Assembly: GCA_965231095.1 (NCBI GenBank)
Contig: OZ246416.1
Span: 741,595-805,594 of the forward strand
DNA: 64,000 bases
Reading direction: 5' to 3'
From: an uncultured Gammaproteobacteria bacterium
Lineage (GTDB): Bacteria; Patescibacteriota; Patescibacteriia; XYB2-FULL-38-15
Position numbers and translations under genes: made by a program. Below the pieces are notes generated by a model. The model was not told the origin of the DNA. It worked only from the letters and a program-made list of their open reading frames with translations, and did no database searches. Shown in pieces: positions 7,990 through 36,627 of the stretch (positions are counted from its first letter, which is position 1; the number at the start of each line of letters is the position of its first letter).

Positions 7990-8039
7990 TTTTGCAAAGA
8001 CGCAAGGAGCCGCAGAAATAAAAAACGCGGCGTAAAATT

Positions 8040-8306
8040 GTGTCAAAGAATAAAAAAATAATAACTATGATGAGACGTCAAAATACAAGCGCAACAGCTG
8101 CCACAAAGAAGGCCTGCTATTTCTGCGCCACAAATGTTAAGGAGATTGATTTTAAAGATGAAACAACTCTCAAAAAATTTATTTCATCTTACGGAAAAAT
8201 TGTTCCGCGCCGAAGAAGCGGGGTTTGCTCCAAGCATCAGCGCAAATTGGCCCTGGCGATAAAACGCGCGAGAATTCTCGGGATTTTACCTTTCACAAAT
8301 AAGTAA
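8040..8306 (+). CDS. rpsR: 30S ribosomal protein S18
   Basis: CYFC...IDFKD...LKKFIS..GKIVPRRRSGVCSKHQRKLALAIKRAR. The start may be at 8067. Confidence 0.85.
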   Translation: MSKNKKIITMMRRQNTSATAATKKACYFCATNVKEIDFKDETTLKKFISSYGKIVPRRRSGVCSKHQRKLALAIKRARILGILPFTNK

Positions 8307-27298: not shown

Positions 27299-28057
27299 TC
27301 ACGGCTCGGGCGGAGGGCAGCCGGTTATCGGACACTTGGCTGCGGTCCACTCGCCGAGGTCATCGCCGGTTGATTCGCTGACGACTCGGCCGACGACGTG
27401 TTCGTGATCCGCGAACTCGCCGGTGTAGCGGTAGTCGCCGGAAGTGAATTCAATTTGCCGGCCGTTGATTTCCGGCTCAAAAGAAGCGGCGAGGAGTTTT
27501 CGTCCGTTTTGGGAAACGTGGAGTTCGAACGCGAAGGGGAAAGTCGCCCCTTGAATTATCCAGTTTCCTTCGGCATTTATCACCGCTCGGATGGTGCGCG
27601 GAGCGCTGCAGACTTCGGGGACGCACGGCGCGCATCCGCTTCCGCCGAGGTAGTTTCTGCAGTCGTTTGTGGCGCAAACTCGGATTGTTGTTTCCGGTTC
27701 GCCCTCGCCGCCGGAATCCAAAATGTCAACCAGAGTGGAAATGATGGCCGAAGCGTCGCGGTAGGTTTCGGGGTCAGCGTCAATAGTCGCAAGATGGACA
27801 AGTTCCGAATCAACAATTTGCCACTCCACTCTCTTGAACGTGTCCATGCCCCGCCCGTTGATGACGCGGGCGAGAAGCTTGTAGTCGTCGGTGTTAGTTT
27901 CATCTCCGACCGGAACAGCCGACGCGCCATCTTCACTGCTGCCCGAAACTGCCACGGCTGTCGCGATATAGAATTCTCCGGGACAGAGTTCCATGTAGGT
28001 TTCCCGGCAGCCGAAGAAAACCGCGGAAAGAACCACGAACGTAATTTTTGTCTTCAT
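27299..28057 (-). CDS. GC-rich Cys-rich secreted lipoprotein, unknown function
   Basis: Signal peptide MKTKITFVVLSAVFFGC. Cys cluster CATNDCRNYLGGSGCAPCVPEVC. SD AAAGGAGGAAG. Confidence 0.55.
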   Translation of the reverse strand: MKTKITFVVLSAVFFGCRETYMELCPGEFYIATAVAVSGSSEDGASAVPVGDETNTDDYKLLARVINGRGMDTFKRVEWQIVDSELVHLATIDADPETYRDASAIISTLVDILDSGGEGEPETTIRVCATNDCRNYLGGSGCAPCVPEVCSAPRTIRAVINAEGNWIIQGATFPFAFELHVSQNGRKLLAASFEPEINGRQIEFTSGDYRYTGEFADHEHVVGRVVSESTGDDLGEWTAAKCPITGCPPPEP

Positions 28058-28128
28058 GAGCTTCCTCCTTTGCTCATTTTTATTTTAACAAAATTGTAAT
28101 AAAATTAAAATATTTATGATAATAAAAA

Positions 28129-28180
28129 AACGGAAGGCCTGCGCGACGTCTGTGACGCCCTGCAAACCTTCCGGTTGGTC
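28129..28180 (-). terminator. intrinsic terminator immediately upstream of 27299-28057 gene (attenuator-like)
   Basis: Minus strand: cggaaggtttgcagggcgtcacagacgtcgcgcaggccttccg plus TTTTTTTATTAT. Confidence 0.45.
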
Positions 28181-28840
28181 TCTTGGGAGTTATCCTTTGT
28201 TTTCGGATCTCACCCGTGAGACCGTGGTCGAGCGACTGTGCCCAACCTGTTCGGGAATTTAATCCCTACTTTTGTGCCCGTTTTGCCCGTCGGGCGGCGG
28301 GGCGCGATTTTTTAAACCGGAATGACTGGACACTTTTGCCAGCCCGCGGTCTTAACGAGGTAATCGCTACTTTGCGCGGCAGTCGCTGCTTTGCGCAAGG
28401 AGCGCCGTACTTGCGACCTCGTCGCGCTACCCCGACTGGTAAATTCCGCTTGGGGCGCATTCCATTTTGTCCCCAAACTCTGGTTTCCCGTCCACCAGGG
28501 ATCAGACAATTTCATTGCTGTTGCCGCGCCGTCTGCCGGGGCGCTTTAGTTCAGCTTGAGCCGCAACGCCCAGCTCTGCCAGGCTCGCATCACACTCCCT
28601 TTCCATGCCAGATTTACTGGAGAAGGCGAAGAGGTGGAGTCGCCAATTTACCAAAAGACGACGACCCCGATCGTTGACCCGCGGTTGCAGGCCAGCCAAG
28701 TCAATGGGCAGACCAATTTGTGTTTGCCGCGCCAGTCTGCCGTGGCGCTTTACTAATTCATTCCCGTGCCCTATTCCTCCTTCCACAAAGAAAAATAATT
28801 ATTTATTCAGCTTTATGGAAAGAGGCATTTGCGCAAAGAA
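28181..28840 (-). ncRNA. candidate large GC-rich structured RNA or leader (about 650 nt)
   Basis: Bounded by a minus-strand TTGACA-17-TATTAT promoter (28875-28847) and the terminator at 28180-28129. No convincing ORF. Two roughly 50-nt internal direct repeats (28516-28560 and 28722-28760). Confidence 0.25.
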
Positions 28841-28846
28841 TTTTTA

Positions 28847-28875
28847 ATAATATCATGGCCTTTATTTTTTGTCAA
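28847..28875 (-). promoter_or_regulatory. sigma70-like promoter on minus strand, TTGACA-17-TATTAT
   Basis: Minus strand reads TTGACAaaaaataaaggccatgaTATTAT. Confidence 0.4.
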
Positions 28876-29174
28876 GAGTTTCTATAAAACAAAAAAGGCC
28901 GCTTAGCCCCTCTTGTTAATTCTCCTAAAATTAGCAACAGCAACAAGAACATCCTTTTAATCTTTTGGTGTGTTTGCGTAATTCTTTGCCCTTTTTAGTA
29001 TTTTTTAAAGCCTGCTTTGTTCTGGCTTTCGCCGCGCTGTTTTGTCCCATATGTTTTGGATTAGTTATTTAATAAATTTATTTTGCCATATTTTTAGCGA
29101 GTGGTCAACTTCATTGATTTTTAATGATAAATATTGTATGATTAAATACGCATTAAGTCCTAACTTTAAAAGTT

Positions 29175-29945
29175 ATGTGGAACACTTTAATTACAATCGG
29201 CGTTATCGTTCTCGCGATTCTTTTGGCTTCCATCCGCCAAATCAACCAGTATCAGCGGGGCGTAAAATTCACGATGGGTCGATATACCGGAGTCATGGCG
29301 CCGGGCTGGCGTCTAGTGATTCCCGTTTTTCAAACCGCCAGAAAAGTTGATATGAGAATCAAGGCGGTTGACGTTCCGGATCAGGAAGCGATTACCAAAG
29401 ATAATATTTCCGTCCGCGTGAACGCCGTGATTTATTACAAAGTCCGCGACGCGAATCAAGTGATTATTGAAGTGGAAGATTTTGGTTATGCCACTTCGCA
29501 ACTTGCTCAAACGACGATGAGAAATGTGGTCGGCGAAGTGAATCTTGATGAATTACTTTCCAGCCGCGAAGCCATCGCGGAAAAAATTAGAGAAATCGTG
29601 GACAAGGCCACTGATGCCTGGGGGATTGAAGTTCATTCGGTGGAATTGAAAGATGTGACTTTGCCGGAAGAAATGAAACGAGTCATTGGCAAACAAGCCG
29701 AGGCGGAACGGGAAAAGAGATCGGTAATTATTAAAGCCGAAGGTGAAGTTATCGCCGCGGAAAATTTAGCCAAAGCGGCGCAGACTTTAGCCGCGTCTGA
29801 CGGGGCGCTGCATCTTCGCACTTTGAGCACGATTAATGATGTAAGTTCGGACCAATCAAATACAATTGTTTTTGCTATTCCGCTTGAAGTTTTGCGGGCG
29901 TTTGAAAGAATGGGGAGAAAAGATAAAGAAAAAGAGCAGGCGTAA
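29175..29945 (+). CDS. SPFH/band 7 family membrane protein (stomatin-like)
   Basis: N-terminal TM, then the SPFH domain (QYQRGVKFTMGRY...ISVRVNAVIYYKV). Confidence 0.85.
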   Translation: MWNTLITIGVIVLAILLASIRQINQYQRGVKFTMGRYTGVMAPGWRLVIPVFQTARKVDMRIKAVDVPDQEAITKDNISVRVNAVIYYKVRDANQVIIEVEDFGYATSQLAQTTMRNVVGEVNLDELLSSREAIAEKIREIVDKATDAWGIEVHSVELKDVTLPEEMKRVIGKQAEAEREKRSVIIKAEGEVIAAENLAKAAQTLAASDGALHLRTLSTINDVSSDQSNTIVFAIPLEVLRAFERMGRKDKEKEQA

Positions 29946-30415: not shown

Positions 30416-30534
30416 AGTATTTTTTAAAATTAATTTTTAAGTATATTTATATTACAACAAAAAATATTTTTGGGCAAGATAAAAAATCTCCCACAAGAGT
30501 GTTCTCGTGGGAGTAGCGGTGCGTATCGGGCGCA

Positions 30535-30867
30535 TCAAGTGCAGCCGTGGGGGACATGGCCGGGATGGCCGATGGGGTGGGCGCAGATCTCATCGTCCCA
30601 TTCCTTGATCGCGCGATCTTCGGCTTCTTCGGCGAGACGGCGTTCCTCGGCTTGTCGCGCCAGAAGGTCTTCTAGGGTTTCTGGGCGCAAGAGGTCGCCG
30701 GCGCGGAGCGTCCGCGGGACACGCTTCTTCTTACGGCTCTTGCGGCGCGTGATTGCGACATCGGCTCGTCCGCCCGATCGGTTTGTGGCAGGCGTGAGAG
30801 GAACCGCAGTCTGTCGGCACCCCTCATGGAATGCTTGCACGCCCCTTTGTTTTTGACGGGAACTCAT
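30535..30867 (-). CDS. GC-rich basic small protein (110 aa), unknown
   Basis: SD AAGGAGG. Arg/Lys-rich, with C-terminal HPIGHPGHVPHGC. Divergent from 31054-31308. Confidence 0.45.
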   Translation of the reverse strand: MSSRQKQRGVQAFHEGCRQTAVPLTPATNRSGGRADVAITRRKSRKKKRVPRTLRAGDLLRPETLEDLLARQAEERRLAEEAEDRAIKEWDDEICAHPIGHPGHVPHGCT

Positions 30868-30955
30868 GTCAAGTCCTCCTTCTTGTCCGCTCTTGGCGGA
30901 TTTTTTCGCTGATTAAAGTTTAGCATTTTAAAAATTTTTGTAAATATAAAAATTC

Positions 30956-30984: not shown

Positions 30985-31053
30985 ATAAAGCCGATAGTTT
31001 TTTTGCGGGGCAAGGCTCCAAAAGGAGAGGAGGAGGAGACGGACGGAAGGTTC

Positions 31054-31308
31054 ATGGATCTGACGAGGGACAGAAGGCTTCACCTGACGGATTTTCTCAA
31101 GACGCACGTCGGGCGCGGCGAGGAAATCGTCGCGATCAAGGAGGTGCCGGTCGACAACCACGTGCGAGTGGCGCGTGAAGAGGACGGGACCACGAGTTTC
31201 GTCGTGGTCTACGTGACCGAGGTCGGACCGGAAAGGGTCGTGGCGCGGGGTCTGCGCGACGGCGAGTTCGCTTTCAGCCCCGACTATCCCTGCATCGTGC
31301 GCGTGTAG
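31054..31308 (+). CDS. GC-rich small hypothetical protein (84 aa)
   Basis: SD GGAGGAGGAGGAG then ATG at 31054. The track ORF starts earlier at 31003. Confidence 0.45.
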   Translation: MDLTRDRRLHLTDFLKTHVGRGEEIVAIKEVPVDNHVRVAREEDGTTSFVVVYVTEVGPERVVARGLRDGEFAFSPDYPCIVRV

Positions 31309-31332
31309 TCTCCGCGGTAGTACAACCAATTC

Positions 31333-36120: not shown

Positions 36121-36381
36121 TCTTCTATTATATTAATACTCATATTTTTAAATTATACCACTAATTATAATTTATAAACACAAAGCTCCCCGTCAGCTAG
36201 CAACCTTTCGGCCGCCCATACCCCTTTCGGGATATGACCCATCCCTGAGTCACTGAACGAGGAGCTCAATGTCAGGGATGGGTTTTGGAACCATGCCTCG
36301 CGGAGGGAGCGAGGTTTAGGCTTTTTTGTTGTATTTATATTTTAGCAAGAAAAGCTGAGTAATGGAAATGATGATTTAATC

Positions 36382-36627
36382 TTATAACTCTTTTTTGATT
36401 TCTCCCCATGTTATCCCGCTGTATTGTTCAATCTCCTTTAAGATGTAGCATAAAACGTCTTTTCGTAATTTGGACGGAATAGTGATCGATTTTTGTGTTC
36501 TGGGCCAGAGCGCCTTGTAATGACTTCCATCTCCGCCCTTAGTATTAATAACAAAACCAAGACGTTTTAAGGCCTTGGTAAATTTTTTTCTTTTTATTTC
36601 CCCGGGTAATTCGCTAAGAGAAGGCAT
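36382..36627 (-). CDS. HicA/YcfA-like mRNA-interferase toxin family protein
   Basis: KKFTKALKRLGFVINTKGGDGSHYKALWP...ITIPSKLRKDVLCYILKEI matches the HicA fold pattern. Start chosen at MPSLSEL. Confidence 0.5.
   Translation of the reverse strand: MPSLSELPGEIKRKKFTKALKRLGFVINTKGGDGSHYKALWPRTQKSITIPSKLRKDVLCYILKEIEQYSGITWGEIKKEL

Follow-up and report, generated by a model that had tools for sequence, protein, structure and literature searches.

A probable large structured RNA gene of an uncatalogued family at a lipoprotein locus of Patescibacteria

Introduction

Bacterial RNAs that exceed approximately 400 nt and adopt an intricate conserved fold are few, comprising the rRNAs, RNase P, tmRNA, group I and group II introns, OLE, GOLLD, ROOL, and HEARO/omega RNA. 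Most of the large bacterial RNAs that have been characterized proved to be ribozymes, cores of ribonucleoproteins, or self-assembling particles. Patescibacteria, also referred to as the candidate phyla radiation (CPR), have genomes of approximately 1 Mb and are mostly uncultured, and to our knowledge, their non-coding RNA content has barely been explored. Here, we analyze a 64-kb stretch of DNA (referred to as the window; contig OZ246416.1, positions 741,595 to 805,594, assembly GCA_965231095.1) from a small group of tiny groundwater bacteria belonging to the Patescibacteria. The assignment to this phylum is based on the flanking UvrB gene, whose best matches, with amino-acid identities of up to 90%, come from metagenome-assembled genomes labeled Falkowbacteria or "Patescibacteria group". 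For a region directly upstream of a lipoprotein gene, an earlier interpretation made without database searches (the sequence-only reading) had proposed a large structured RNA. We conclude that this region is probably a gene transcribed on its own, whose product is a large non-coding RNA with a high degree of structure. The RNA belongs to an uncatalogued family, which, within the reach of our searches, is confined to one family-level lineage of Patescibacteria; for the narrower statement that it is a gene for a structured non-coding RNA, our confidence is high.

The closest described systems are OLE (RF01071), ROOL (RF03087), GOLLD (RF01998), and raiA (RF03072). Like these, the RNA described here stands alone, is several hundred nucleotides long, and has its own promoter and terminator. 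It further shares with them a multitude of covarying helices, pseudoknots, invariant nucleotides, a patchy distribution, and the lack of an assigned biochemical function, and it resembles GOLLD in its modular organization with variable and conserved halves. In contrast to these families, however, it matches no covariance model even at E ≤ 10, its host phylum is Patescibacteria, its distribution is far narrower (7 orthologous copies at one locus), and neither associated protein genes such as oapA-C nor a phage context are present. The RNA is a new family that resembles OLE, ROOL, GOLLD, and raiA in kind and is a member of none of them. OLE, ROOL, and GOLLD form homo-oligomers (PMC12286853) and, purely by analogy, the self-complementary GCGCC/GGCGC stems described below would permit pairing between molecules of this RNA as well.

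The RNA as a transcription unit

The sequence-only reading had described a GC-rich noncoding region of approximately 650 nt with a promoter and a terminator on the minus strand. The minus-strand RNA body indeed has a G+C content of 54%, compared to 30% to 40% in the AT-rich flanks, and lacks Pfam matches as well as shared open reading frames (ORFs), but its length has to be corrected to approximately 715 nt (Table 1). Homologs were located via synteny: for the 252-aa lipoprotein encoded downstream, 14 relatives were found in a large protein collection, the corresponding contigs were retrieved, and copies of the RNA were identified on them by nhmmer. The resulting 7 sequences are the window and six orthologs from relatives.

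The promoter consists of the −35 box TTGACA (28875-28870), a 17-nt spacer, and the TG-extended −10 box TATTAT (28852-28847), i.e., TTGACA-17-TGaTATTAT. Matching the consensus at 11 of 12 positions, it is the best of 6 promoter-like sites in 27800-29300, where shuffled sequences led to an expectation of 2.0. In the alignment, the −35 box is invariant in 7/7 homologs, and a TAnnnT-like −10 box occurs at the same spacing. The start site of the RNA is predicted to lie near 28841. The terminator, which had likewise been claimed as the hairpin cggaagg...ccttccg followed by T7, was confirmed and its 23-nt arms were recovered in an inverted-repeat search; it was absent from the output of a simple terminator scan, presumably because the hairpin is beyond the stem and loop limits of that scan. 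Within the four long-form sequences, compensatory changes were found in 8 of the 18 pairs of the terminator helix, and the U-run is kept in all homologs. Both promoter and terminator are conserved throughout the alignment of all 7 homologs. Furthermore, the minimum free energy z-score of the region relative to shuffled controls is −5.6 for the minus strand and −2.9 for the plus strand of the window, and ranges from −4.3 to −11 across the homologs. G-U pairs are frequent in the fold, which, in combination with the positions of promoter and terminator, establishes the minus strand as the one that encodes the RNA.

Table 1. Coordinates of the RNA, its parts, and associated elements (window positions unless a related locus is named).
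Feature	Position	Strand	Remarks
Whole predicted transcript, long form of the structured non-coding RNA family	28124..28841	(-)	approximately 715 nt
Sigma-70-type promoter of the RNA	28847..28875	(-)	promoter scan (11/12) and homolog alignment
P1, 5'-terminal hairpin of approximately 24 bp	28776..28826	(-)	24 pairs, 10 with compensatory changes, 91% of cells paired
Pseudoknot unit 1 (second repeat of the sequence-only reading)	28707..28751	(-)	
Variable middle of the 5' core, with P3, P4, and lineage-variable hairpin	28545..28706	(-)	
Pseudoknot unit 2 (first repeat of the sequence-only reading)	28496..28547	(-)	
Near-invariant 59-nt central block GUCUGAUCCCUGGUGGACGGGAAACCAGAGUUUGGGGACAAAAUGGAAUGCGCCCCAAG	28449..28507	(-)	conserved in 5 sequences
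3' domain, several hairpins and a long-range helix	28177..28448	(-)	approximately 270 nt; long forms only
Intrinsic terminator	28124..28173	(-)	18-bp interrupted G+C-rich hairpin 28173-28131, then U7 28130-28124
Promoter of the lipoprotein gene (extended −10 type, TGTTAAAAT; gene start ATG 28057), outside the RNA	28082..28090	(-)	
Opposite-strand ORFs at the RNA site in related loci	L003:7620-8010, L087:3629-3856, L088:3626-3889, L091:3576-3857, L092:3601-3819, L089:1135-1648		

Structure of the RNA

In the long form of the RNA, a 5' core is joined by the 59-nt block, which hardly varies, and by a 3' domain of approximately 270 nt; in two genomes, the 5' core occurs alone. The 5' core is a self-sufficient module. 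Spanning approximately 350 nt, it starts with a hairpin at the 5' terminus and further includes two H-type pseudoknots that are homologous to each other as well as another two or three hairpins; our model comprises P1, the two pseudoknot units, P3, P4, and a hairpin that is inserted into the linker of unit 1 in two genomes. Across the 7 sequences, 93.9% of the alignment cells are paired, compared to 40% to 56% when the pairing partners were slid by 1 to 3 columns, and 18 pairs show compensatory changes, compared to 2 to 7 in the slid controls. None of 500 shuffles attained any of the five observed measures. The comparative alignment for covariation, which the sequence-only reading had suggested, revealed compensatory changes in the 5' core as well as in the 3' domain, and the large structured RNA that it had proposed is supported by homologs in six related genomes that keep the promoter, the terminator, and a common fold.

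The 3' strand of P1 is the purine strand GGAAGGAGGU, which resembles a Shine-Dalgarno (SD) sequence and is invariant in the alignment; it is not followed by a conserved ORF. An internal anti-SD, in which this strand would pair with a CACCUCU segment after P4, was considered and dropped, since the segment is not conserved.

The two direct repeats of approximately 50 nt that had been noted in the region are real and correspond to the two pseudoknot units, but they are shorter than stated: approximately 31 nt are common to both, including one indel, with a repeat core of 18 nt (28531-28548 and 28735-28752) that is 94% identical. No further copy of the motif was found within the window. In unit 1, stem S1 is formed by GCGCC (28748-28744) with GGCGC (28733-28729) and is invariant in 7/7 sequences, and stem S2 by the loop segment GGCAGAC (28741-28735) with GUCUGCC (28713-28707), an A-rich linker lying between them. 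S2 of unit 1 is 96% paired and has two covarying positions (UA:5/CG:2 and GC:3/GU:3/AU:1), and the linker of this unit harbors an additional covarying hairpin (helix 4) in L086 and L089. Unit 2 is built in the same way, with S1 consisting of GCGCC (28544-28540) and GGCGC (28530-28526), again invariant in 7/7 sequences, and S2 of GGCAGAC (28537-28531) and GUCUG..CC (28507-28498). The latter does not vary among the long forms, and both short forms deviate from it with the pairing retained, as GCAGGC/GCCUGU in L094 and GCAGGC/GUCUGC in L096. Across both units, the S2 partner strand is found 12 to 27 nt downstream of the loop segment, and S1 is identical in 14/14 instances. This absolute invariance suggests that more than one constraint acts on the same nucleotides. 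Since the consensus preferred by RNAalifold pairs unit 1 with unit 2, the RNA might alternate between pseudoknots formed locally and a duplex that is either long-range or intermolecular. Between the two units, the 5' core has a variable stretch in which relatives differ by indels of 19 to 27 nt; its helices 5 to 7 are paired in 92% to 98% of cells and include 4 pairs with compensatory changes.

The central block is the most strongly conserved segment in the five sequences that contain it, being identical between the window and L006 save for one substitution and one 1-nt indel. At four-fold degenerate sites of the neighboring Band_7 gene, identity is only 41% to 65%, whereas this block is nearly unchanged in five genomes. 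According to our model, it probably folds into a third pseudoknot (CUGGU/ACCAG and GACGGG/CCNGUC) and a hairpin with a conserved 15-nt loop; in this fold, 98% of cells are paired across the 5 sequences, and there is one compensatory change, located in GACGGG/CCNGUC. For the 3' domain (4 sequences), 96.3% of cells are paired, compared to 33% to 51% with slid partners, and 16 pairs show compensatory changes, compared to 1 to 4 in the slid controls; 0 of 500 shuffles matched the observed value.

Presence and loss among relatives

All copies of the RNA are located between a 39-aa ORF next to the Band_7 gene and the lipoprotein gene, on the same strand as the latter. Full-length homologs were identified at L006:7280-8050 (identical to L083), L086:1393-2236, and L095:1635-2421. 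L089 contains the 5' two-thirds of the RNA followed by a different 3' part, and L094 and L096 harbor the 5' half (core) only, with a terminator directly after it. From 6 of 13 related loci (L003, L004, L087, L088, L091, and L092), the RNA is missing. Loci with and without the RNA are intermingled in a neighbor-joining tree of the lipoprotein, from which we derive that the RNA was present ancestrally, was lost at least four times, and was twice converted from the long to the short form. In L096, the terminator still resembles the long form at its 3' end. The short forms therefore seem to have arisen by internal deletions, with promoter, 5' core, and terminator being spared. The repeated losses imply that the function of the RNA is accessory rather than essential.

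Searches beyond these copies extended over several collections. In 99 loci and the window, no further copies were revealed by nhmmer, which was run with one profile each for the 5' core and the 3' module, or by a scan with a pseudoknot descriptor, and neither the RNA nor its pseudoknot motif was found elsewhere in 1.57 Mb of related loci or in the 64-kb window. A dispersed repeat of the REP or MITE type (repetitive extragenic palindrome or miniature inverted-repeat transposable element) was therefore rejected, as the motif is confined to this RNA within these sequences. Exact scans for the repeat motif gave no match in GTDB genomes and JGI metagenomes and one chance match, within a coding region, in viral sequences; two further motif scans of viral contigs returned one chance match and none, respectively. 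A degenerate hairpin-loop pattern retrieved from metagenomes a copy identical to L006 along with two chance matches in coding sequences, and from viral contigs nothing. Blastn of the RNA against phage and plasmid collections yielded no match.

Two side observations concern this site. The independent metagenome contigs L097 (1-78) and L098 (1-63) both break off shortly before the lipoprotein gene, in the place taken by the RNA and variable spacer, which suggests assembly breaks from strain-level variation at the site. Furthermore, in L004, one of the RNA-less loci, the interval that separates the 39-aa ORF and its terminator from the promoter of the lipoprotein gene (7990-8100) contains a CTTGAC hexamer followed by a T-rich stretch; judging from its sequence, the hexamer may be a relic of the −35 box of the RNA after a clean deletion.

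Comparison with known RNA families

Rfam 15 was searched at gathering score with the whole window, at E ≤ 10 with the region, and at E ≤ 5 with five homologous loci. At gathering score, no match was obtained in the region, and at E ≤ 10, only noise matches in its AT-rich ends. The RNA bodies of the five homologous loci were likewise free of matches, with scattered sub-threshold matches at terminators and flanks. Families without a match include OLE, ROOL, GOLLD, raiA, HEARO, RNase P, signal recognition particle (SRP) RNA, 6S RNA, riboswitches, and group I/II introns, and ARAGORN detected 4 tRNAs and no tmRNA in the window. The Rfam search had been suggested together with the sequence-only reading, whose inspection by eye for RNase P, tmRNA, and SRP had come to the same negative result. 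A literature search for a described large CPR RNA of this kind returned nothing relevant.

With tmRNA (RF00023, including permuted forms), the RNA shares a length of 350 to 700 nt, an architecture consisting largely of a series of H-type pseudoknots, and an SD-like or mRNA-like element. However, ARAGORN detected neither a tRNA-like domain nor a tag reading frame, there is no Rfam match, and the RNA is dispensable and patchily distributed, whereas tmRNA is near-universal. Pseudoknot riboswitches (SAM-II/V, preQ1-II/III, guanidine-III, fluoride) and tandem aptamers are similar with regard to their H-type pseudoknots, which are compact and whose A-rich third loop can, in this topology, form minor-groove triples, as well as their strongly conserved core nucleotides, the presence of two similar units per transcript, and a terminator downstream. 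Unlike in those, the units described here match no model, are embedded in an RNA of 350 to 715 nt, and do not overlap with an expression platform, and the downstream gene has its own promoter. Finally, the arrangement of a promoter, repeated pseudoknot units, a terminator, and a co-oriented gene is reminiscent of the antitoxin RNAs of type III toxin-antitoxin systems (ToxI-like). The two units, however, are 204 nt apart instead of head-to-tail, Tandem Repeats Finder (TRF) finds no tandem array, and the downstream gene encodes a lipoprotein without endoribonuclease signature and occurs without the RNA in six relatives.

Alternative explanations

A decayed or mis-framed protein gene, or an mRNA for one or several small proteins, is a most improbable explanation and close to refuted. 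G+C-rich ORFs of 67 to 164 aa do exist on both strands, contrary to a literal reading of the earlier statement that no convincing ORF is present (164 aa on the plus strand, 94 and 67 aa on the minus strand); none of them is conserved, however, and none has a Pfam match, so that the statement holds in this respect. Among the 7 homologs, no ORF is common in frame, position, or length, and no ORF with homologs spans the region. Homologs differ by indels of 1, 2, 5, 7, 8, 19, 20, and 27 nt that break the frame, 1-nt indels being present even inside the best-conserved block of the RNA, and conservation tracks base pairing rather than codons. While the 94-aa ORF is annotated as a gene in one public assembly, it represents a singleton cluster, and the 164-aa antisense ORF, when compared by phmmer with 1.84 billion representative proteins, returned a tandem-repeat artefact and no relatives. 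An SD-like GGAGG located 13 nt upstream of an AUG in 6/7 homologs could indicate translation, but the ORF that follows has no constant length, being a mini-ORF of 2 codons at one extreme and a long overlapping ORF at the other, and the AUG is missing from L096. A small ORF started by this AUG was therefore dropped as a candidate, as it is not conserved.

More serious is the question of whether the RNA is a very long cis-acting leader of the lipoprotein gene, similar to a riboswitch or attenuator, in which the pseudoknots sense a signal and the terminator gates read-through. The sequence-only reading had offered an unusually long regulatory leader as its alternative to a structured RNA, and the layout seems to invite it: in 7/7 cases, the RNA lies directly upstream of the lipoprotein gene on the same strand, the terminator of the short forms follows pseudoknot unit 2 after approximately 10 to 20 nt, as in an aptamer with its expression platform, and the two similar pseudoknots are reminiscent of tandem aptamers. 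However, the 7 cases are one orthologous locus and hence a single observation. The lipoprotein gene (252 aa, with signal peptide and without Pfam match) exists without the RNA in six relatives. Between terminator and gene lies a conserved extended −10 element, TGnTAAAAT, which is kept approximately 20 to 25 nt upstream of the SD of the lipoprotein gene in RNA-bearing loci and in the RNA-less L003 and L004, where it serves the gene. In the long form, the terminator is a long and stable 18-bp hairpin approximately 350 nt away from the nearest pseudoknot, inspection of L094 and L096 revealed no conserved anti-terminator pairing, and no riboswitch family matches even at E ≤ 10. We therefore favor a trans-acting RNA over a leader, based on the strong terminator, the separate promoter of the lipoprotein gene, the lack of an anti-terminator, and an adjacency that counts only once; action in trans appears likely, and a leader improbable. 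Slightly less credible than the leader is a selfish, mobile, or defense-related RNA element in a variable hotspot, such as a ribozyme element, the remnant of an intron or retroelement, or an antitoxin-like RNA, which we regard as scarcely probable. It would account for the patchy presence among close relatives, for the variability of a site at or around which other small ORFs or HD-domain genes occur in relatives, and for a promoter-repeats-terminator-gene layout that superficially resembles type III toxin-antitoxin loci. Against it stands a constant locus, without copies elsewhere in the 1.57 Mb of related DNA or the window and without flanking repeats, in whose neighborhood genes for an integrase, a reverse transcriptase, or a nuclease were not seen. 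Moreover, phage, plasmid, and viral collections contain no match, the repeats are spaced rather than tandem, the downstream gene encodes a lipoprotein with signal peptide that is present without the RNA as well, and the lipoprotein tree fits ancestral presence followed by losses.

Several points weigh against our interpretation as a new family of independently transcribed, trans-acting RNA. Only 7 sequences are available, all of them orthologous at one locus, so that the covariation statistics rest on a small tree and adjacency to the lipoprotein gene is inseparable from common descent. Loss from 6 of 13 related loci would also fit a dispensable or selfish element. Because both S1 stems and the central block never vary, their pairing is unproven, and long-range pairing between units 1 and 2 is equally compatible with the data; in fact, the consensus preferred by RNAalifold pairs the units with each other. 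The start, 3' end, and stability of the RNA are inferred from its sequence, and no partner protein is evident in its neighborhood.

Possible mode of action and significance

If the RNA is an independent gene, as we consider probable, it would work in trans as a stable folded molecule and not as a leader of the lipoprotein gene. The covarying helices would then serve as scaffolding, and the working parts would be the invariant elements, i.e., the GCGCC/GGCGC stems together with the A-rich linkers of the pseudoknots, the loops in the central block, and, within P1, the purine strand GGAAGGAGGU. These elements may constitute recognition surfaces for a partner; a protein and a small ligand are candidates, as is a second molecule of the RNA itself. 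For any single one of these kinds of partner, the assignment is doubtful at best. A further-reaching proposal is that the RNA represents a new class of large "ornate" RNAs specific to CPR/Patescibacteria with a sophisticated function of its own beyond that of a passive protein-binding scaffold, be it a ligand-binding or catalytic core or an S1-driven switch or self-assembly, as in ROOL, GOLLD, and OLE. This proposal is rather unlikely to hold.

A structured RNA of 0.7 kb under purifying selection in a genome of approximately 1 Mb points to a worthwhile function. Its modularity provides natural experiments, as the 5' core alone, the long form, and complete loss are found in different genomes. 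The narrow distribution and the missing functional handle limit its significance.

Neighboring genes and other elements

The RNA promoter is directly preceded by a very basic, co-oriented 39-aa ORF (28931-29050, minus strand) that ends in the cysteine run MGQNSAAKARTKQALKNTKKGKELRKHTKRLKGCSCCCC. All relatives, including those that lack the RNA, have kept this ORF beside Band_7, its L089 version ending in YCCKCCK; Pfam gives no match for it, and its annotation is hypothetical only. A variable hotspot separates Band_7 from the lipoprotein gene, and in the vicinity of this spacer, HD-domain/YfbR-like and DUF559 genes are inserted in some loci. In place of the RNA, most of the six RNA-less loci contain a G+C-rich ORF of 72 to 93 aa on the strand opposite to the lipoprotein gene (Table 1), and L089 carries two such opposite-strand ORFs in addition to the RNA. 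The ORF of L003, which is the one that was searched, has no Pfam match.

Elsewhere in the window, two additional G+C-rich islands were observed at 30470-30900 and 31000-31330, with 62% to 66% G+C in an AT-rich background. They carry unannotated ORFs of 110 aa (minus strand) and 84 aa (plus strand) without Pfam matches. Finally, a LOOT RNA (RF03000; 85.5 bits at a gathering score of 46.4) was identified at 36199-36322 on the minus strand, directly downstream of an 81-aa ORF (approximately 36385-36627, minus strand) with a match to HicA toxins (PF07927, E = 5e-7).

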